Positions 20,964 to 32,499 of a stretch of DNA of 64,000 nt are shown here, piece after piece (position 1 is the stretch's first letter; every line of letters begins with the position of its first letter). The notes beneath the pieces were generated by a model. That model was not told the DNA's origin, did not search any database, and saw only the letters and a program-made list of their open reading frames with translations. Source of the DNA: an uncultured Chlamydiae bacterium. Lineage in GTDB: Bacteria > Chlamydiota > Chlamydiia > Chlamydiales > Parachlamydiaceae. A program made the translations under genes and the position numbers. Location: assembly GCA_963754655.1 (NCBI GenBank), contig CAVWGN010000001.1, positions 800,001 to 864,000 on the forward strand. Direction: 5' to 3'.

Positions 20964-22340
20964 ATGGTCTTCACTCCCAAAATCATCCCACATCTTGATC
21001 TTAAAGAAGTCTATGGAGAATGGCAAAAATATATTCATCGTCCGCCAACTCTTCACTCGCGATCCGTGACGTCTTCTCTCACTTCCTCGTCCGATGAACC
21101 TTTCATTTTTGATCTTCCTGGCAAAGGACAAGAGGCCCTTGTTTTACCCGAATGGAACAGGGTTGTGACCATTGTAAATGAAGATAAAGGATTCGGTGGT
21201 AAAGCATTAGTGTATGATTTTGAAACAGGGAAGTTAATCTATACCTTCGATTGCAAAAATAACATCATGACGATCTATCGACATGGCAACATTCTCTTTG
21301 TTCAGCCTGACAATGCTTGGCAAATCCAAGCCTGGGATCTCACTACAGGCAAACCCTTTGAACTATCTGAAAATTGGAAAAGGGTCGATCAAATATGCTT
21401 TAGCGATCAATTTATTGTGCACAACCATTTCAAAGGTTCAATAGATATTCATGTATCCAAAGACGCTCAACAACCTCTTGTTTTACATATCTCTGATCCG
21501 ATAACACTCAAACCCCTGCAATCGCTTCAGACGGGACTCTTTAATATCTATGACATGTTGATCGTCAATGGTCAGCTATACGTCTTGGGCAGTGATGATA
21601 ACCCTACGGTTATGGCTGATTTTAGCGATAATAGCGGCTGCCTGATGCGTTATGATTCTCCTGAAAAAGAAAATCCCGACAAGTTAAAGGTGTCTTTTAG
21701 ATATGATTACAATGGAGGATATCGTCATGTCTTAAAGAACCATCAAGGGACGATCTTTAATACTGCGTGGAGTCCTTCCGTCACTACACTTTGGAATGCA
21801 GATACACTCAATTCACAGCTAGAAAAGCCAAATAAAGGCGGTTCCATGACGGCCAAGTTAGGGAACATTGCTGTTATCATCGACGATAACGAAATGGCCA
21901 TTTGCCGTCAGGAACAAGATAAATTCAACATCGTCAAAACGATTGAGTGGGATAAAAACGAACCAGGATCAAGTATAGAAATTTTCAACTTCTCAAATGG
22001 CAAATTTTCTGCAGAAGGATATGAAAGTGGGATAGTGAGGATACGCAATCTCGACACATTTGGTATTCAAATGGAATTAACCCCGCCGCAAAATATGCAA
22101 GAAGTTTTATATACTCAGTTTGTCAAAGACAAGCTGCTCGTACACTATAACAAACCTTCGACGGAGGGAACGTTGGCTGTTTTATGGGACTTACAGACCC
22201 AAACTCCTTCTCTTCTTATCACAAGGGCGGCTCTTAAAGGCCGTGATTATCAAAGTCAATACGATACCGTCCATATCGTGGATAACCATATCCTCCTTCG
22301 CAGTGAAGATCAATTCATGTTTTACAAAGGAGTCATTTAA
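20964..22340 (+). CDS. Beta-propeller (WD40-like) protein, paralog 1
   Basis: Repeated xxWD/YD strand ends; Ser/Thr-rich N-terminus; AAGGAG RBS. Confidence 0.7.
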   Translation: MVFTPKIIPHLDLKEVYGEWQKYIHRPPTLHSRSVTSSLTSSSDEPFIFDLPGKGQEALVLPEWNRVVTIVNEDKGFGGKALVYDFETGKLIYTFDCKNNIMTIYRHGNILFVQPDNAWQIQAWDLTTGKPFELSENWKRVDQICFSDQFIVHNHFKGSIDIHVSKDAQQPLVLHISDPITLKPLQSLQTGLFNIYDMLIVNGQLYVLGSDDNPTVMADFSDNSGCLMRYDSPEKENPDKLKVSFRYDYNGGYRHVLKNHQGTIFNTAWSPSVTTLWNADTLNSQLEKPNKGGSMTAKLGNIAVIIDDNEMAICRQEQDKFNIVKTIEWDKNEPGSSIEIFNFSNGKFSAEGYESGIVRIRNLDTFGIQMELTPPQNMQEVLYTQFVKDKLLVHYNKPSTEGTLAVLWDLQTQTPSLLITRAALKGRDYQSQYDTVHIVDNHILLRSEDQFMFYKGVI

Positions 22341-23788
22341 TGTTGACAACAGCAAGAGAAACATTTCAGCACTATTTCTGGACTAAGACAGCTGATCCTA
22401 TCACAACCACTTCTACCATGACCTCTACCTCGACAGCTACATCTAAAGAAGTTGCACCGATTATCACCAACATGTCTGGAAAGGGAAGCAAAACGATTAT
22501 TCTGGATGAATTCTATCTAGCTACTTATATTGAGACTGCTAAGGAAATTCATGTTTATGCATACACCGAAGGAAAACTCACATACAGCATACCATGCGAC
22601 CATCCTGTAAAGAAGTTATATAGCGATAGTGGCTCTCGTCGTCTTTACGCTCAATTTGAAGACAACCCACAAGTGAAGGCTTGGACAGACTACAACGGAA
22701 ACCCTATAGAATTGCCAGAGCTTTGGAAAAGGATCGATAATCTCAGCATCGGAAGAAATTTTATATTCCATTCGGAGCCTCTAACAGGCGAAAATAGACC
22801 TCTGAAGGTCTCTATTTCTGATCGCAGTTCGCTTCAACTTAAACACACAATTTCAACAGAATTTTTTAAAATCTTTGATATGGTTGAAAATCAAACAAGA
22901 TTATTCGTGACAGGAATCGATAGCAATCCTAACAATAAAATGATTCCTAAGAATGGCATGCTAATGATCTATGAAGGATTATTGACAAATAAAATCGTGT
23001 GGTACAAAAAAACGTATCCTTATGATTCAAACACCACCCTTAATGAAACCCTTAATGTTGAACAGGGTTTTGTCTATAATTCCAAAGCGACTCCGTCTAA
23101 TATTAATATATGGGATGCTAATACTTACGCTCCGGTTTTAGCGCGTAAGGCTGACAAAGATCAGAATCAACCTACCTTGACAAGCTTAGTCGGTTATCAA
23201 TTAGCTGTAGCCGATAGCAAGAGCATTGCCATCTATAGGGTCGACGGAGAATGTCAGGATTGTGATCCAGGTTTTTTTCTGGACCCAAAGGAACTTCCCG
23301 TGTCTCAAACAGACGGAACAAAAATTTTGAGCCAACCTAGGATTCTTGAAATTTCTAAAGATAACCCTTTAACCGCTCTCTGCTTGTTTAATAATGATGA
23401 TTACCTTGGATCGAATAAAGCACGCTATCTCATGGTGGAAGGGTATGCTAATGGCCTTGTGCGTATTCGCAAGTTAGAGGATTTGAATGTGATGATGGAA
23501 TTTCACCCACCAAAGGATATGAAGAATGTCATCGCTTGTGAAACCTATTATACTTCCAATCGACTACTGGTCCATTATGGCACCCCTTCCAGCGACGGCA
23601 CCTTAGCGCTTGTCTGGGACTTTTCTCAACACACACCAGTTCAAGCTATTACTCGCGAGGCTCTTAAAGACAGACATTATGATAGTTCACAAGACACCGT
23701 AAAAGTTTTTTACCCCAACAGTGTCGTTGTGCAAAGCGAAGACCAAATCTTATATTATAAGCGAATTTTTGAAACCAAGTCAGAATGA
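22340..23788 (+). CDS. Beta-propeller (WD40-like) protein, paralog 2
   Basis: Shares WKRxD, EGYxxGxVRIR, VHYxxPSxxGTLAxxWD and ITRxALK with paralog 1; TAATG overlap. Confidence 0.7.
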   Translation: MLTTARETFQHYFWTKTADPITTTSTMTSTSTATSKEVAPIITNMSGKGSKTIILDEFYLATYIETAKEIHVYAYTEGKLTYSIPCDHPVKKLYSDSGSRRLYAQFEDNPQVKAWTDYNGNPIELPELWKRIDNLSIGRNFIFHSEPLTGENRPLKVSISDRSSLQLKHTISTEFFKIFDMVENQTRLFVTGIDSNPNNKMIPKNGMLMIYEGLLTNKIVWYKKTYPYDSNTTLNETLNVEQGFVYNSKATPSNINIWDANTYAPVLARKADKDQNQPTLTSLVGYQLAVADSKSIAIYRVDGECQDCDPGFFLDPKELPVSQTDGTKILSQPRILEISKDNPLTALCLFNNDDYLGSNKARYLMVEGYANGLVRIRKLEDLNVMMEFHPPKDMKNVIACETYYTSNRLLVHYGTPSSDGTLALVWDFSQHTPVQAITREALKDRHYDSSQDTVKVFYPNSVVVQSEDQILYYKRIFETKSE

Positions 23789-24696: not shown

Positions 24697-27009
24697 TTAT
24701 TCTTTCCATTCATCATCATTTATCTGTTGAGCATCATCTCCTTCTATATCTCTTCTAAGACTTTTCGCTGCGGCCATGATGCTGAGTTGAATGCGCTCAT
24801 TGTCTGGTAGGCTTTCCCATACTTTTTTCAAAGTCTCATCTTGAGTGATTTGTTTGGTTGTATAACCTTCTTTTTCAATTAATTGTTTGATTCTTGTGTA
24901 AGGATCTTGTTTCTGTATGGGATGATCACCAATAAAGTCCGTTTTATTCAATTTCCTTCCTTTTTTGATTTGATTTAAAAGTGTCTCTTGATTTTCAGAT
25001 GCTTTAATAGGTTGTTCTTTAGTAAGATCTCGTTTATTTAATTGACTTGCTCCATTTTTGATTTGATCAAAGAGAGCCTCTCGACCTTCTGGTTTTACCT
25101 CTTGAATATTGGTCTTGTTCAAGCCTTGTTCTCTCCTTCTCTGGATCTGCTCAGCCAGAGAAAATGATTTTTCTTCTTGATCTTCGACAAGCTTAGGCTC
25201 AACATCAATCGCCTGATAATGTTCTTTATTAGGTGATTCTGTTGAATAGCCCATTGTTTGTTGTGGATGGGGAAGAGAGGGGGGTAAATCTTCAGGAGGA
25301 GGTGAGAAATCTTTTAATACTGCTATTTCGTCAGAAAAAGTTGGTGCTTTTTCTGTTGTTTCTTGTGGTTCAGGAGGCAATTGTAATTCTTCTGGTAGTA
25401 TGATTTCATTTTCTTCTGTCTGAGTTAACTCTTCTGTTAGTATAGGTGTGACCCGCTCTTTAACTTTGAGAGCTTGATTTAATTCCTCATGAAGCTTTAA
25501 TTTTTCAATTAATTCAAAAATATGATTAGTTTGGTATTTAAGTTTAGGAAAAGAAAAGGAAATTAAAGTCTTGAGTTGGTTCACATCATCCATTTCTTCA
25601 AATTTCTTGGGCAGAGAATCTGGTTTAAATGGACTATTTTTGACTTCCTTGGCAATTTCTTGGAGAGTAGAATGGATAGAGTCTTTAAGCTTTTGAGTCT
25701 GAGTAAAATCCTGAGGGACCTTTGTTTCCTGTGTTTGTTTTGCTTTCTCTGCATGCAGTGTTAAATTATCGCGGTAAAGCTTAAGCTCTTGACGTAAAAT
25801 ATTCATTTGATTTGCTGTTTTTTCTCTTAGGTCTAAGAAAGAGATTGCTTGCCTGCTTCTTTTTAGTTGTATGCTTAATTTTTGACAGTAAAGATCCTTT
25901 TGGTGCAGCCAACTCAATTCTTCATGATTAAATTTTGCAGTTTTCTTTATTTCTTTATAGGTCTCTCTTTGACCTTCTCGAACTTTATCGAGCTCTTGTA
26001 TTAAATAATCTTTGCCTTTAAAAAATCGATACGCAGCATCTATCACTTTATTGCCATAAATTGATTTCTCTAACTTAGAGATTCGATTGCATTCTTTTTT
26101 ATAGAGCGAGTATAAAGCTTCTAAAACTTCCTCTTGTTGACCTAAAGCTTGTATTCTTCTATCGTTTATGAAAAGAGTTCCATCCCATAATCGCTCAATA
26201 TAACCCTTTAAATCAGGAAAGGCAGATTTAAGTAATTGATGGATATCTTCACCGTTTAATCTTTCTTTTTTGAGAATTTGTTGTAATTCACTCTCTGCTG
26301 TTGGATGCAGAACTTCTTTCAGGGTTTCTACTAGAGCTTTCCTTTCCTCTCCGATCTTAGTAAAGTTCACCCATGTGCCTTGAAAGTAATAATCTTTCAT
26401 TGCGACTTCAATGTTAAGAAGCTTGTTGGTCACCTCTAATGTTCGTTCGAAGCCGGCAATAGTTTTTTCTAATTTCTGGATTTGTCCTGGCAAAGCGTCA
26501 TAAGTTAAATGCCTATCTGCTAATTCGATAGCGGTGCTTTCATGTTCTTTTAATTCCTGTAAATATGTTTTAGCTGTAGTTAATTTTTCACGCGCCCCTT
26601 TTAAATACCCAGCATTAATAGCTACCGTGTCCGCATTAGGAAATTTTCCAGCTAATTTTCTTTCTGCATGTGTTGCTTTTATTGTCCACTTCGATAATTG
26701 ATCGATCGCTTGTTTGGTACTCCCTATAAGCACATGAATACTTTCAGCTTGTTCTTGTTCAGATTGAGAAATTTTACCAAAAATTCTGTTAAAAAATTGC
26801 CCAATTTTATTCCAAATCGCTAAGTGCCGAGAAATAACAATAGATTTTAATCCAGGTTTGGCGCTTTCTTCAGAGCCGTTACCTTTTAATGTTTCGGTGG
26901 CAATCAACTGAGTTAGACTTTTATTAGAAGCCCTTGTATTTCCTGTTGCCTCTGAAGGAGAAGAAGTAGAATCAATAGGAAGTGAAGAAGGGGAATCATG
27001 TATATGCAT
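24697..27009 (-). CDS. WASP/RickA-like candidate effector: coiled-coil, Pro-rich linker, 3 WH2 motifs, central helix, acidic DDEW tail
   Basis: SLAEQIQRRREQGLNKT, REALFDQIKNGASQLNKR, ETLLNQIKKGRKLNKT; SIMAAAKSLRRDI; terminal NDDEWKE; Ser/Pro-rich N-terminus. Confidence 0.75.
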   Translation of the reverse strand: MHIHDSPSSLPIDSTSSPSEATGNTRASNKSLTQLIATETLKGNGSEESAKPGLKSIVISRHLAIWNKIGQFFNRIFGKISQSEQEQAESIHVLIGSTKQAIDQLSKWTIKATHAERKLAGKFPNADTVAINAGYLKGAREKLTTAKTYLQELKEHESTAIELADRHLTYDALPGQIQKLEKTIAGFERTLEVTNKLLNIEVAMKDYYFQGTWVNFTKIGEERKALVETLKEVLHPTAESELQQILKKERLNGEDIHQLLKSAFPDLKGYIERLWDGTLFINDRRIQALGQQEEVLEALYSLYKKECNRISKLEKSIYGNKVIDAAYRFFKGKDYLIQELDKVREGQRETYKEIKKTAKFNHEELSWLHQKDLYCQKLSIQLKRSRQAISFLDLREKTANQMNILRQELKLYRDNLTLHAEKAKQTQETKVPQDFTQTQKLKDSIHSTLQEIAKEVKNSPFKPDSLPKKFEEMDDVNQLKTLISFSFPKLKYQTNHIFELIEKLKLHEELNQALKVKERVTPILTEELTQTEENEIILPEELQLPPEPQETTEKAPTFSDEIAVLKDFSPPPEDLPPSLPHPQQTMGYSTESPNKEHYQAIDVEPKLVEDQEEKSFSLAEQIQRRREQGLNKTNIQEVKPEGREALFDQIKNGASQLNKRDLTKEQPIKASENQETLLNQIKKGRKLNKTDFIGDHPIQKQDPYTRIKQLIEKEGYTTKQITQDETLKKVWESLPDNERIQLSIMAAAKSLRRDIEGDDAQQINDDEWKE

Positions 27010-27370
27010 AGCAATACCTTTTTATTTAAAGTTAAACTAAATCTAATTATTATTATAACATTTGATAATTTTTATTATAAAAAAAACTTATTTATAATTT
27101 ATTATTAATACTATCATAACGAATTAACTTAAAAAAGCTATTAAGGTACAGTAATTTTATTGTAATTTTGAATGCAGATCTAAAAAAACGGGTAAGAAGG
27201 ACTTTCCTTAACAACCGGACGTTATAGCTTGCTATTAACGAAGTTGTTATGCTCAGTAAGAAGCGCCAGGTTTTTAGCGCCGTAGTTTTTAAGGATATAT
27301 AGAGGGAAAAGCGCTTTTCGCTAGACAATTTTATTTAAATGTCTCAACTTCACCTGAAGAACTAAGCAAT

Positions 27371-28663
27371 TTGGTTTACAGCATGAAATTTGCTAACAAA
27401 GACAAAGTCTGTATGACTCCTTCACCCTTAAAAAAGATTAAAATTCCTTCCTTAACAGATTTGCGTACTTTTATATCTTCAATTCCTGGCTTATCCGGTC
27501 AGGATAAACAAAATGTCGAGCCTCCAGAAAAAATAGCACTTTATGATCGATATAACTTAGACGCTTGCCCTTGGCCTCAAACGCCAGATGGTCAATATGC
27601 ACAGAAATTTTTAACGCCGTTGATCCAAAGAGGTGTTTCGAAATACATTGAAAATGTGCAGACTGATATGCGTGTATTGGTAATGGGTGACTTAGTCCTA
27701 CCGATTACCATCAATGAGGCTGAATATGAAAATTCTTATGTGTGTTCACCTTATAGTTATTTTATCTCCTATGCAAGGGAATCGCTCGATTTTCTCTCAC
27801 AAGCTTGGCTTTATCATATCATCAATGCTCTACTAGTGGGAATGGGCAAAGTCTTAAGGAAACTTCATATCAATAAGGTTGTCGTTGTTAATAACTGGTT
27901 GTATTCGACTAATTTGTATCCTCAAATACAATCCTCCCAAATCGCGCGAATTGCAGAGTTTCTAGAGCATGCTTTTCCTGACCATGCGATCATTTTTCGC
28001 TGTGTTGATCCTTATATAAATCCCATTTGTTTCCAGACTCTCCAACAAATGATGAGATTAGAATTTATTGCGATGCGGCAGATTTTCTTTTTAGATCCTC
28101 AGGATTCTTCGCTTTTAGAATCACGTATTTTTAAGAGTGATAGGAAATTGTTAAAAAACAGTGGATATGAAATTGTCGATGGGGAGCAATTGACAGAATG
28201 TGAAATTCCTCGTTTATTAGAGCTGTATCGAGATTTATACATCCAGAAATATTCTAGTCTGAATCCCAACTTTAATGAAGAGTATATACGTTTAGTCTTA
28301 GAGCAAAAACTATTAAAGTTTAAAGTCCTTAAAAAGGATGGGCGAATTGATGGGGCGGTGGGTTATGTGCAACGAAACGGGAAAATGTATTGTCCTTTTT
28401 TTGGCTATGATAGTCAGGTGCCTAAAGAAATAGCTTTATATCGTCTATTGTCCACCATATTAATGTTAGAAGCTTATCAGTGCAGCCTTTTCTTCCATCA
28501 AAGCTCAGGCGCCTCCACATTTAAAAAAATTCGCAAAGCCCATCATTGTATCGAATACATGGCTGTTTCCTATAAACATCTTAAATTTTCACGTCATTTC
28601 CCTTGGCAAATTCTTAAAGCCCTCTACAACTCACTGGGCGCTATTTATATGAAACGCTATTGA
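27371..28663 (+). CDS. GNAT-like hypothetical protein
   Basis: NSYVCSPYS, VNNWLYSTNLYP, YSSLNPNF, PFFGYD, LYRLLS, SSGAxxFKxxR; start uncertain. Confidence 0.7.
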   Translation: MVYSMKFANKDKVCMTPSPLKKIKIPSLTDLRTFISSIPGLSGQDKQNVEPPEKIALYDRYNLDACPWPQTPDGQYAQKFLTPLIQRGVSKYIENVQTDMRVLVMGDLVLPITINEAEYENSYVCSPYSYFISYARESLDFLSQAWLYHIINALLVGMGKVLRKLHINKVVVVNNWLYSTNLYPQIQSSQIARIAEFLEHAFPDHAIIFRCVDPYINPICFQTLQQMMRLEFIAMRQIFFLDPQDSSLLESRIFKSDRKLLKNSGYEIVDGEQLTECEIPRLLELYRDLYIQKYSSLNPNFNEEYIRLVLEQKLLKFKVLKKDGRIDGAVGYVQRNGKMYCPFFGYDSQVPKEIALYRLLSTILMLEAYQCSLFFHQSSGASTFKKIRKAHHCIEYMAVSYKHLKFSRHFPWQILKALYNSLGAIYMKRY

Positions 28664-29265: not shown

Positions 29266-30324
29266 TTAAAATATCCAAAACTTGCCAAAAGACAAAGTCA
29301 GGACCCAGCTCATTAGCAAAAAGATTTTGATCCATTTAAGAATGCTTGATTCTCTTTGATTAGACAATAAAATAAGGGCTTGCAAGCGTTTAACGGCATG
29401 ATGTGAAGTTGCAAAGGATCGGGCGAAAGTGGGAAGGGAAGCCGTATGTAGCCAGTCAGCTGCTTTGTAAAGTGCTTCGGCCAAATGCAAGTGATTGAGA
29501 GAGGTACCAGGCAGTCGATCGCATGCATATTCCTGAGCAAACTCTAATCGGGTCTTAAAATAGCGGGTTGGAATCCACCAAAAAAGATGACAAATCCCAA
29601 ATAAAACTGCATTGACTATAAGGTCTCCATGCATCAAATGAGCGAGTTCATGTGCAATGATAGCCTCAAATTCTTGTGGGATGAGTTTGTCAAATAGAGC
29701 GCGAGAAATGAAAATGGCTGGACGGCGCTGTCCGATGATGAAAGGGGAGTGAGGTATGGGGGTCAAATAGATGGCTACTTTTTTGTGTTGAATTCTCGAT
29801 TGCAAAAGGGAATCTTGTAGCGGATAAGAGTAGGGGGTAGAAATGGAGCACAGTTTGTTGAGCCATTGAGAAGATAAGCGATATTGCCAAATTGCCTGTC
29901 CTAAAAACCAAAGTGTTCCGGCAATCAAACCTAAAGCGCAAATTAAGGTCCACTGGCAGCCTATTTTGAGGCAAAGAAGATCCGCAAGAGTAAAGGTTTG
30001 TCCGTGAGAAAGATGAAGATCGATCGAAGAGAGAGGATACTGGAAGGGAAACAACCAGAAGTTCAGACTCAACATGCGCGTCCCCTCAGGACTGGTCAGA
30101 GGATTGAGCTGTTGAGCAAGAGCCCAATTGGAAAATTCATAGGAGCCCAAGTCGGTGATCAACTTCATAAATGGAATTAATAAGCAGAGCGCCTGAAGAC
30201 GGCCATTTTGGATGCGTAAAAGCTTCAAAGCAAAGTAAGTCAAAAAGCTTAAAGTGAAAAACGAGAGTAGGCTATTGACTCCTACATTGACAATGAAAAT
30301 CGGCCATAATGAAAATTCCATCAT
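29266..30324 (-). CDS. M56-family membrane metallopeptidase (BlaR1-like, no sensor domain)
   Basis: Multiple TM segments, AHELAH, LFWWIP, QEYACD; adjacent to blaI. Confidence 0.9.
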   Translation of the reverse strand: MMEFSLWPIFIVNVGVNSLLSFFTLSFLTYFALKLLRIQNGRLQALCLLIPFMKLITDLGSYEFSNWALAQQLNPLTSPEGTRMLSLNFWLFPFQYPLSSIDLHLSHGQTFTLADLLCLKIGCQWTLICALGLIAGTLWFLGQAIWQYRLSSQWLNKLCSISTPYSYPLQDSLLQSRIQHKKVAIYLTPIPHSPFIIGQRRPAIFISRALFDKLIPQEFEAIIAHELAHLMHGDLIVNAVLFGICHLFWWIPTRYFKTRLEFAQEYACDRLPGTSLNHLHLAEALYKAADWLHTASLPTFARSFATSHHAVKRLQALILLSNQRESSILKWIKIFLLMSWVLTLSFGKFWIF

Positions 30325-30701
30325 TTCATCTCGTTCTTAGCTTTTTGAAGAATGTTTTTCATCTCTTCTAAATCTTGCATTGTTAAATCCTTGCTTGAAT
30401 CGATCAAATAGCGAATCATGGCAATAGAGCGTCCCCCAAAGAGGCGTTGCTTAAGTCGCTCAACAAGTCCAAGCGCAGAAGTTTTTGATGTTTGGGGAAG
30501 TTGATAAAGATAGTGACGTCCTTCCCGCCGGCGCTCTAAATCTCCTTTTTCAAACAGCCGTGTCATTACAGTCATGACCGTCGTATAAACAACAGTTTGA
30601 TTCAAAGCTTGATAAATTTCTTTGACTGAGACCTCTTCTTTTTCCTTGATCAGCTGGAGAATAATCCACTCCAATTCGCCAAATAATCGTTTCTTTGACA
30701 C
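30321..30701 (-). CDS. blaI: BlaI/MecI/CopY-family repressor
   Basis: GELEWIIL, YTTVMTVMTRLFEKG, GRHYLY, FGG; ATGA overlap with the M56 gene. Confidence 0.92.
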   Translation of the reverse strand: MSKKRLFGELEWIILQLIKEKEEVSVKEIYQALNQTVVYTTVMTVMTRLFEKGDLERRREGRHYLYQLPQTSKTSALGLVERLKQRLFGGRSIAMIRYLIDSSKDLTMQDLEEMKNILQKAKNEMK

Positions 30702-31446: not shown

Positions 31447-32499
31447 TTATTGATATTGTTTTACATGTTCTTCAAAAGACCAACTTAACAAATTCAAGAG
31501 GATCACAGCTGATACAACGCGTGTAAAGCGCGGACCAAATCCCTTATAAGGTTCAGCCAATAGATGATGGAATAATTCACCTAGCGCTTGATCAACACGA
31601 CCCGTTTGATGGCTAGTTTGCAAGCTATTTTTCATTATTGTGCGAATTCCTTGAGGCCAAAATACTGTCTTCATTCCTCCTTGGCACTGCGTTTTCCATG
31701 TATCAAAAGGCTGCGTCAGAGTTGCTCCCAGTGCTCCAGCAAAGGCACTTCCTACAATGGTTGCTATCAAATTCAAAGGGATAATCTGCTGTTGAGAGGC
31801 AATGAATTTAAAAGAATCATTTTTTTGTAGGCAAGCTGCAAAATAAGGTCCTCCTGCTGCATAAGATGCTGTAAATGGCATTTCTCGCAATATAGTTGGA
31901 ATTAACCCTAATGTTAATGTTCGCCGACCATATTGCTGCCACAATTCAGTTGTCGCTTTCCAGTAGGTTGGGCGAATTCCCTTTTTGGCTTGTTCTTCAT
32001 AACGCCTTACATTTTCGCGTTGTTTATCCATGAGCATTTCGCTCCAACTAGCAATGGGAGCTGCTACCAATCCTCCAACTATGGAAGCAAATAATTTTTC
32101 TAAGTCAGAAAGGGATTCAGGATTTCTTCCGTGAGCCAACTTTTGCTTTGTCCAGCCGATCGCCCCCATTTGCACCCCAATGATGATGCTCATTCCTGTT
32201 CCATTCACTAAAGCTCCCCCATATAACTGGCGTAAGCTCAAAGATTTCCAAATCGAAGGTGCATGTTGGGATTTATTTTGAACGGTACGCATGCGCTTTT
32301 GCAAAATATTTTTAAATGTGACAAGGGGTTGATCAACTGCAACTTCAATTGCTCCTGAAAATATGCCCTTAATTACGTCTTTATAAGGGCTAGAAGCCAA
32401 AGAGGTCATTGCTCCATGTAGGAAAGATCCTTTTTCAAAAAACGGATTCAAGGCTAAAGAATTGTCCTTTGGCTTAACGGGAGGGATAGACATCGTCAT
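31447..32499 (-). CDS. Mitochondrial carrier family (MCF/SLC25)-like protein
   Basis: Three repeats: QPLVTFK...LYGG, SWSEMLMDKQR...LGLIPTILRE, QPFDTWKT...YKGFGPRFTR. Confidence 0.85.
   Translation of the reverse strand: MTMSIPPVKPKDNSLALNPFFEKGSFLHGAMTSLASSPYKDVIKGIFSGAIEVAVDQPLVTFKNILQKRMRTVQNKSQHAPSIWKSLSLRQLYGGALVNGTGMSIIIGVQMGAIGWTKQKLAHGRNPESLSDLEKLFASIVGGLVAAPIASWSEMLMDKQRENVRRYEEQAKKGIRPTYWKATTELWQQYGRRTLTLGLIPTILREMPFTASYAAGGPYFAACLQKNDSFKFIASQQQIIPLNLIATIVGSAFAGALGATLTQPFDTWKTQCQGGMKTVFWPQGIRTIMKNSLQTSHQTGRVDQALGELFHHLLAEPYKGFGPRFTRVVSAVILLNLLSWSFEEHVKQYQ

Follow-up and report, generated by a model that had tools for sequence, protein, structure and literature searches.

A candidate WASP-like actin nucleation-promoting factor and its relatives in environmental chlamydiae

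Does an environmental chlamydia encode its own version of the host proteins that switch on the Arp2/3 complex? The question is raised by a stretch of 64,000 nucleotides (hereafter the window) from an uncultured Chlamydiae bacterium of the family Parachlamydiaceae (GenBank assembly GCA_963754655.1, contig CAVWGN010000001.1, positions 800,001 to 864,000), in which a single uninterrupted open reading frame (ORF) with an ATG start, on the reverse strand, encodes a protein of 770 amino acids, P0001. An initial annotation made from the letters of the window had proposed this protein as a WASP-like nucleation-promoting factor (NPF) for actin. The computational analysis presented here supports that overall reading by the conservation found in homologs, by profile matches to N-WASP, Spire, leiomodin, WAVE1 and cordon-bleu, and by the type III secretion gate encoded in the same genome. 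P0001 is probably a host-directed, injected mimic of the class I NPFs, comparable with WASP, Scar/WAVE, JMY, RickA and the BimA protein of Burkholderia thailandensis.

Within the last ~200 residues of P0001, a Pro-rich stretch is followed first by three WH2-like motifs, then by a helix with a basic end and finally by an acidic tail (Table 1). Every element quoted in the initial annotation was located at its expected place in the ORF, and the WH2 array that it had put at about 24935-25165 is indeed there, with motifs spanning 24940-25161. The linker contains a further Pro-rich stretch at residues 544-549, which, like the one listed in Table 1, lies upstream of the WH2 motifs.

Table 1. Features of the family gene and its product P0001, with positions in the window
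Feature	Position	Strand	Basis
Whole gene, 770 amino acids plus stop (stop codon 24697-24699)	24697..27009	-	own-genome family profile match, E 2.2e-187
Candidate promoter-like site: TTTATA, 18 nt, TG-TATAAT (extended -10 TG), ~43 nt upstream of ATG	27052..27081	-	consensus match only, 10/12 matches
N-terminal leader, residues 1-60, Ser/Thr/Pro-rich, predicted disordered	26830..27009	-	composition, hydropathy, pLDDT 33-54
Best-conserved sequence stretch, residues 66-80 (W..I..FFNR.F), opening the module common to the RhoGEF paralog	26770..26814	-	alignments
Conserved all-helical N-domain, residues 61-517, predicted elongated three-helix bundles	25459..26829	-	pLDDT mostly >90; core of 41 relatives
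Disordered acidic Pro-rich linker, residues ~518-616	25162..25458	-	E 19%, P 15%, net charge -18; pLDDT 31-42
Pro-rich stretch in linker, residues 569-582	25264-25305	-	sequence
WH2-like motif 1 (WH2-1), residues 617-633, degenerate	25111..25161	-	aligned to first WH2 of N-WASP 3m3n_W; predicted helix 618-627
WH2-like motif 2 (WH2-2), residues 643-660	25030..25083	-	top Pfam WH2 stretch 640-659; predicted helix 643-651
WH2-like motif 3 (WH2-3), residues 675-690, the conserved motif	24940..24987	-	I681, L687 invariant; predicted helix 673-682
Helical insert between WH2-3 and C-like helix, residues 703-735	24805..24903	-	pLDDT 91-95; conserved in closest subfamily
C-like amphipathic helix, residues 738-755, ends RR-D-I	24745..24798	-	relaxed C pattern; model helix 736-757
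Acidic tail, residues 756-770, Trp768 third from end	24700..24744	-	W768 invariant in alignments

A HMMER search of 1.84 billion representatives returned 42 proteins at E ≤ 0.001, namely the query and 41 relatives; 32 of the 42 matched at E ≤ 1e-10 and 20 at E ≤ 1e-30. The clusters of 20 relatives were checked, and they came from metagenome or genome collections and were unnamed or labelled 'hypothetical protein'. Word-indexed homolog searches with the whole of P0001, with residues 600-770 or with the family profile found the query itself only, a scan of P0001 against NCBIfam gave no family, and searches of genome contigs for related loci, either with the single protein or with its neighbour gene, found nothing. 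Three alignments were made, comprising 28 members (A1), the six closest relatives (A2) and the tails (A3). Tail motifs were counted in the 31 proteins of at least 600 amino acids, P0001 included, the 11 shorter matches, many of them fragments, having been dropped; the 2007 ORFs of at least 150 amino acids in the genome of the bacterium itself served as background.

The tail proved to be a conserved feature of the family. An acidic end with Trp, scored as a Trp in the last 15 residues following at least four Asp/Glu in 12, was found in 25 of the 31 members, against 26 ORFs among the 2007 of the background. Of the six members that lack the Trp, three close with an acidic stretch containing Phe, a replacement that occurs in eukaryotic NPFs too, according to PMC3298513. 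At least one WH2-like match was present in 23/31 members by a first pattern and in 21/31 by a second, relaxed pattern (57/2007 in the background), and the acidic-Trp end was combined with a first-pattern match in 19. The strict published WH2 pattern was matched at least once in nine members and in none of the 2007 ORFs, while poly-Pro matches, from one up to eight per protein, were found within the last 330 residues of 28/31. W768 was the only invariant column in 23 aligned tails. It was also invariant in all six closest relatives, together with L734, L742 and, in WH2-3, the helix Ile (I681) and the anchor Leu (L687); near the start of the N-domain F72, F73, N74, R75 and F77 were likewise invariant in these six. 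The ordered set of Pro-rich region, WH2, basic-ended helix and acidic Trp is thus kept across relatives at 20-40% identity. The initial annotation had named homologs that lose the WH2 motifs and the terminal Trp as an outcome that would count against it; the homologs conserve both, and therefore that objection falls away.

By eye, the family divides into two subfamilies: close relatives of P0001 have an insert between the WH2 motifs and the C helix (the V-C insert), and more distant members combine a short linker with a C helix of textbook pattern, as in the tails of P0018, P0020, P0021 and P0027. Another 16 family members, mainly short ones or ones without a recognisable WH2 motif or tail, yielded nothing relevant in a Pfam scan. 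P0001 and its relatives would on these grounds form a new bacterial family of putative WASP mimics.

Similarity to known actin regulators was found first of all in the WH2 region. When P0001 was compared by phmmer with 177,635 sequences of the Protein Data Bank (PDB), the sole match was the tandem-WH2 construct of N-WASP (3m3n_W, E = 4e-5), and the alignment spanned residues 617-709 with all three motifs in register. The family profile searched against PDB chain sequences matched N-WASP (3m3n_W, E = 5.2e-8; 2vcp_D, E = 6.5e-6), Spire (3mn7_S, E = 3.9e-4), leiomodin-2 (4rwt_C, E = 0.013), WAVE1 (3p8c_D, E = 0.02), cordon-bleu (3tu5_B and 4jhd_C, E = 0.049-0.062), CAP1 (9q7o_W, E = 0.075) and a WH2 peptide of VopL (3m1f_V, E = 0.25). 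The Pfam WH2 model (PF02205) picked out two stretches of P0001 (E = 5.8e-5, 23.0 bits); in the genome-wide Pfam scan WH2-2 and WH2-3 scored 17.0 and 14.5 bits, respectively, and the homolog from the same genus reached 31 bits, which is above the curated cut-off. In the alignment of 28 members, the place of WH2-3 is taken by the consensus LLxQIxxGxxLKK. In the structure model, short helices are predicted at all three WH2 sites (Table 1) inside a stretch, residues 519-699, that is otherwise predicted to be disordered. The predicted helices agree with the usual form of a WH2 motif, in which a helix of about ten residues within disordered sequence leads into an extended anchor of the LKKT type. 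The putative assignment of these motifs as WH2 is statistically supported.

Three WH2-like motifs in tandem, spaced 9 and 14 residues apart, together with the profile matches to Spire, cordon-bleu and VopL, could also describe an Arp2/3-independent nucleator of the Spire, cordon-bleu or VopL/VopF type, in which the motifs would align monomers to form a seed, leaving a secondary role to the tail. Such an activity is compatible with an NPF mimic: three WH2 motifs followed by a CA region is the layout of JMY, which does both. As the principal role of P0001 it is unlikely. Family members differ in how many WH2-like motifs they have, from none to three, with exactly one in 14/31 (first pattern), whereas the acidic-Trp end is the most conserved feature of the tail. 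Spire, cordon-bleu and the Vibrio proteins VopL and VopF share with P0001 the tandem WH2 motifs and short linkers but do not have an acidic Trp tail; in the chlamydial family it is the number of WH2 motifs that varies and the tail that is constant. A Pfam scan of P0001 gave no VopL-type dimerisation domain or other Pfam domain.

We turn to the part of P0001 that would contact Arp2/3. The C-like helix presents the hydrophobic residues I740, I744 and A748, then RR and I755, and fits the C pattern once Ala is allowed at the third place; six Asp/Glu are found in the 12 residues preceding W768. The profile region behind the WH2 motifs matched N-WASP CA chains only, and weakly so, namely the CA chimeras 7t5q_I and 7t5q_J (E = 0.18-0.57, positions 646-747 of the profile) and two CA peptides of 41 residues, 9dlx_H and 9dlz_H (E = 2.3-2.4, positions 721-747). 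The combination of motifs is unique in the genome of the bacterium. In a first count, an acidic-Trp end was present in 6 of the 2007 ORFs and at least two WH2-like matches near the end in 23, and this ORF was the only one with both. When patterns for WH2, C and A were written from the definitions published in Kollmar et al. 2012 (PMC3298513, section 11), their relaxed forms were again combined in one of the 2007 ORFs, which is this ORF. For the CA region, the putative assignment is based on the pattern of the motifs, their order and their conservation.

Several observations weigh against an activating tail delivered to the host. None of the three motifs of P0001 matches the strict published WH2 pattern, owing to LNK where L-[KR]-[KR] is needed and to one helix deviation per motif; the relaxed pattern gives three matches. 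WH2-1 is degenerate and was not picked up in the genome-wide Pfam scan, and only six of the 28 aligned family members have a Pfam WH2 match at E ≤ 0.01. The WH2 model scan suggested in the initial annotation did return its two stretches, but the score of P0001 lies 0.1 bit below the curated cut-off of 23.1 bits. The strict C pattern (three large hydrophobics, an R/K doublet or triplet and a large hydrophobic) is not matched by P0001, which has Ala748 at the third place, and neither form of the pattern is common in the family: the strict form was found in 6/31 members and 62/2007 background ORFs, and the relaxed form in 10/31 and 137/2007. The last 70 residues of P0001 matched designed proteins only in the PDB and no chain of the WASP family. 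The tail-only profile (A3) had no significant PDB match either (3m3n_W, E = 0.2; N-WASP 6uhc_H, E = 7.7); the non-significant alignment to 6uhc_H keeps WH2, the basic-ended helix and the terminal Trp in register. The spacing from WH2-3 to the C helix is ~48 residues, versus a linker of ~22 residues in canonical chlamydial tails. The candidate secretion signal discussed below is a matter of composition, no chaperone gene was identified, and a look for RNA runs listed none. Finally, the model buries the C helix inside a small domain, which might keep it from Arp2/3. Of the complete C-A tail claimed in the initial annotation, the acidic Trp end stands, and the C helix, which fits a relaxed pattern and is predicted to be packed, does so only in part.

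The small domain was seen in an AlphaFold2 model of P0001 (28-row alignment; mean predicted local distance difference test score, pLDDT, 73.5), which consists of a disordered leader (residues 1-60), the helical N-domain (61-517), a disordered linker (519-617), isolated WH2 helices, the small domain (703-757) and a disordered acidic end. In the small domain (pLDDT 91-95), the C-like helix, residues 736-757, is predicted to pack with three preceding helices, and folding the domain alone (16-row alignment) gave the same helices with pLDDT 91-94. The first helix of the V-C insert is itself WH2-like, the tail-profile alignment of it to N-WASP WH2 motifs being not significant. Fold searches with the small domain, in which Z reached 4.7 at best and the lowest Foldseek E was 1.7, found no recognisable fold, and the GBD-C unit of WASP was not among the listed matches. 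The small domain may keep the C helix packed and under regulation, and such an addition is not seen in the cellular proteins.

A non-canonical C helix that is predicted to be buried would also suit a different protein, namely an inhibitor or sequesterer of Arp2/3 like Arpin or the TmeB of Chlamydia trachomatis, and/or a sequesterer of actin monomers. The acidic-Trp end would then occupy Arp2/3 and the divergent, packed C helix could not trigger activation; acidic regions of TmeB and Arpin inhibit Arp2/3, as stated in PMC10360934. The tails of relatives and of other chlamydial proteins point the other way, having a full WH2 motif and a canonical C helix right before the acidic end, which is the layout of an activator. 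To our knowledge Arpin contains neither a WH2 motif nor a Pro-rich region. We consider an inhibitor improbable.

If P0001 is an NPF mimic, it has to reach the host cell. The genome encodes a non-flagellar type III secretion gate: its HrcV/SctV export gate protein scored 914.9 bits against a cut-off of 692, and flagellated control genomes remained below that cut-off. Two secretin-domain genes were also found, as well as four TLC nucleotide transporters, all above the Pfam cut-off and present in none of 14 control genomes. The chlamydial Pfam markers Chlam_OMP6 and HrpJ had no match in the genome, nor anywhere in the controls, and are hence uninformative. The leader of P0001 consists of 21.7% Ser and 10% Thr, and the N-termini of the relatives are similarly hydrophilic. 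Ser/Thr-rich disordered leaders are typical of type III substrates, and the leader is a candidate type III secretion signal. P0001 has no Sec signal and no membrane segment. An Inc-type membrane protein was considered and ruled out by this absence of a hydrophobic segment, the highest 19-residue hydropathy being 0.47.

The helical N-domain of ~460 residues is shared by the family and matches proteins of its own bacterial family only. Foldseek found nothing for it at E ≤ 0.001, VIA-align found spectrin-repeat-like bundles only (Z 10-12, the range expected for any helical bundle), and the ESM Atlas gave no usable match. A homodimer prediction for residues 60-517 scored 0.00, which gives no verdict on the suggestion in the initial annotation that the helical middle may dimerise.

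Part of this domain occurs in a second protein of the same genome. The paralog, of 522 amino acids (L002:1480-3048, G000:C1), is encoded ~405 kb beyond the window start and matches positions 2-273 of the family profile (E = 9.6e-19). In the pairwise comparison residues 66-264 of P0001 aligned with residues 72-264 of the paralog (E = 3e-6), starting at the conserved W..FF..F helix. The C-terminal half of the paralog is a Pfam RhoGEF (DH) domain (PF00621; 35.4 bits versus a cut-off of 27.6, E = 1.6e-8, model positions 3-180 of 180), and weak PDB matches were to the DH domains of ARHGEF11 (E = 0.13-0.17). Guanine nucleotide exchange factors (GEFs) of the DH type are unusual in bacteria. One N-terminal module with two different eukaryote-type ends directed at the actin cytoskeleton is as expected of a module for effector delivery or targeting, and the fact that the RhoGEF paralog has it too points to an effector scaffold not recognised before. 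A 612-amino-acid ORF of another genome (G405, L036) has a similar end motif that was not called by Pfam.

The RhoGEF paralog also bears on whether the likeness to VCA tails is real. P0001 might stay inside the bacterium as a coiled-coil protein with a structural or regulatory role, its tail resembling VCA by chance or low complexity, given that the motifs are short, that the strict patterns are unmet in P0001 and that the similarity of its CA region is not statistically significant. This is more improbable still: the ordered motif set is conserved between distant relatives and unique among the ORFs of the genome, the actin, profilin and Arp2/3 to which such motifs relate are proteins of the host and not of bacteria, and the paralog carries a eukaryote-type domain of its own.

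How widely the family and its tail are distributed was determined in a sample of 401 genomes of the phylum, that of the bacterium included. Fifteen of them matched some part of the family profile at E ≤ 0.001. A strong N-domain match was present only in G226, in G115, which is of the same genus, and in G399, where it is cut by a contig end, and nine genomes matched only the profile positions from ~510 onward, which is the tail. Within the same bacterial family, 8 of 73 species genomes matched at E ≤ 1e-5, including two of the four genomes of the genus, and among genomes at least 90% complete the figure was 4/40. The family gene is a patchy accessory gene, with absence from incomplete genomes left unestablished.

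The tail has a wider distribution. The tail-only profile matched 10 of the 401 genomes at E ≤ 0.01, and these belong to at least eight families of the order. The ORFs concerned (in G039, G085, G143, G362, G038 and others) have poly-Pro, WH2, a fully fitting C helix and an acidic Trp end. Tails on other scaffolds, with one WH2 motif, the full C pattern and an acidic Trp or Phe end, are encoded at L012:1501-3105(-), L008:1498-3714(-), L011:1495-3654(-), L022:238-1932(-), L023:616-1671(+) and L009:1471-3519(-). The N-terminal parts of 15 tail-bearing proteins were compared by BLASTP. Five, all family members, matched one another only, and the other ten had no match at E ≤ 1e-3, some of these ORFs being cut by locus ends. 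Since these ten show no mutual similarity, the Pro-WH2-C-A module stands on several apparently unrelated chlamydial scaffolds, and it looks like a portable VCA cassette. Two proteins contain two WH2/C/acidic-Trp modules in tandem, namely the homolog of 854 amino acids from the same genus (L004:1087-3648(-) in G115) and a protein of 595 amino acids (L026:118-1902(+) in G112). On contig 64 of G405 a second copy of the family gene lies in pieces (L033, L034, L035 and L037) with in-frame stops (one TAA and three TGA); it looks like a decaying paralog, additional to the full-length family gene of that genome.

In the window, the divergent neighbour of the family gene (27371-28663, +; 430 amino acids) is kept in all five full-length loci examined (the present genome, G226, G115, G405 and G421). 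It is a relative of BioF2-like/GNAT acetyltransferases (Acetyltransf_6, E = 0.0012, below cut-off; Atlas feature match 0.98) and is conserved context with no functional link seen, and it argues against mis-assembly. That eukaryotic host DNA was mis-assembled into the bacterial contig, as the eukaryote-like tail and a GC content of 0.355 versus 0.388 for the chromosome might suggest, was considered and rejected as next to impossible, given that the gene has no introns, lies between ordinary bacterial genes in a contig of 3,123,268 bases (the genome totals 3.16 Mb and has a second contig of 35 kb), has full-length relatives in four other genomes of the same bacterial family and a fifth cut by a contig end, and keeps the same neighbour throughout. 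Its AT-richness may reflect low-complexity coding or foreign origin.

The sequence AAAGG is located 7 nt before the ATG of the family gene. Promoter-like sites of the region, one of which is given in Table 1, were not more frequent than in shuffled sequence (7 found versus 9.6 expected). Several other genes of the window were noted. A 350-amino-acid ORF at 31447-32499 (-), 4.4 kb from the family gene, contains the eukaryotic mitochondrial-carrier repeat (Mito_carr, E = 9.7e-17, above cut-off). Two adjacent ORFs of 458 and 482 amino acids, at 20964-22340 (+) and 22340-23788 (+), are paralogous by eye and share a C-terminal block, ...VRIR.L......ME..PP..M....LLVHY..PS..GTLA..WD...; neither has a Pfam family, the only hints being sub-threshold ones to WD40/beta-propeller. 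An overlapping pair at 29266-30701 (-) encodes a BlaR1-type M56 peptidase sensor (352 amino acids) and a BlaI/Penicillinase_R repressor (126 amino acids).

We then compared P0001 with known actin regulators. The eukaryotic class I NPFs (WASP/N-WASP, Scar/WAVE, WASH and WHAMM/JMY) have the same order of Pro-rich region, WH2, basic-ended helix and acidic end with a near-terminal Trp, as defined in PMC3298513. For N-WASP and WAVE1 the WH2 part is detectably similar to the chlamydial family. P0001 differs from the class I NPFs in having no WH1, GBD, WHD, WAHD, WMD or other eukaryotic N-terminal domain (Pfam, E ≤ 10), in WH2 motifs that read LNK and not LKK, in a C helix that fits only loosely and in the folded V-C insert of ~35 residues.

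Among bacteria, BimA of B. thailandensis is an autotransporter that imitates a VCA tail, with WH2 motifs near its C-terminus. RickA, likewise a bacterial Arp2/3 activator that imitates the tail of host NPFs, has WH2 motifs near the C-terminus and an N-terminal repeat region around a domain that binds G-actin, and is located on the surface for motility, as described in PMC11077975. Both come from another phylum, and the chlamydial family has neither the repeat and surface feature of RickA nor the autotransporter of BimA, being presumably injected by the type III system. The label 'RickA-like' in the initial annotation holds for the layout only, a likeness by description.

Closer to the bacterium, TarP, TmeA, TmeB and SemD of Chlamydia belong to the same phylum, are delivered by type III secretion and target host actin, and TarP has a WH2-like actin-binding helix. 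In the literature found on them, TarP nucleates actin with neither Arp2/3 nor a CA tail, TmeA and SemD activate the N-WASP of the host rather than taking its place, and TmeB inhibits Arp2/3; none of the four is described there with a complete V-C-A tail. No similarity to these proteins turned up in the general searches, none of which was aimed at them. A WH2 protein of Cardinium is described in PMC5698495. No description of a VCA-type protein was found in the literature searched on environmental chlamydiae, most subscription journals lying outside that search, and this agrees with the view in the initial annotation that such an effector is undescribed from these organisms. Imitation of a VCA tail by bacteria is known; what is unusual here is that the WH2 motifs are of the LNK type, that an insert lies between V and C and that a RhoGEF paralog has the same N-terminal module.

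As an NPF mimic, P0001 could act in the following way. It would be exported by the type III system by means of its disordered Ser/Thr/Pro-rich leader, and the helical N-domain would position it at a host membrane or partner. The Pro-rich linker may recruit profilin-actin or SH3 proteins, and the WH2 motifs, recognisable in the protein, would bind actin monomers. To judge from the conserved motifs, the C-like helix together with the acidic end and its Trp768 would dock on Arp2/3 and deliver a monomer, so that a branch is nucleated, and the V-C insert may act as a regulator of the C helix.

Taken together, the observations allow a broader proposal, which is speculative and which we hold only tentatively. 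A portable VCA cassette would be distributed over many unrelated scaffolds, and would here be attached to a new delivery or targeting module that carries a RhoGEF in the paralog. The bacterium would inject both a Rho activator and its own substitute for WASP, and could thus bring about its uptake or reshape the amoebal cortex with no need for NPFs of the host. In this subfamily, the insert would be a switch for autoinhibition in cis that a host cue releases; it would do the work of the WASP GBD-C clamp with a structure unrelated to it.

Entry of Chlamydia and the biology of its inclusion depend on host actin. The idea of an NPF mimic extends a known strategy, its function in this case being read from the protein sequence. 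If it is true, a direct substitute for WASP exists in a much older, amoeba-associated branch of the phylum, the known Chlamydia effectors working differently, and it would be the third independent invention or acquisition of a VCA tail by bacteria, after Rickettsia and Burkholderia. The family would also provide natural variants with which Arp2/3 activation can be dissected (LNK-type WH2, the V-C insert, Phe for Trp and tandem VCA), and would help to find out by what means uncultured symbionts get into their protist hosts or remodel them.

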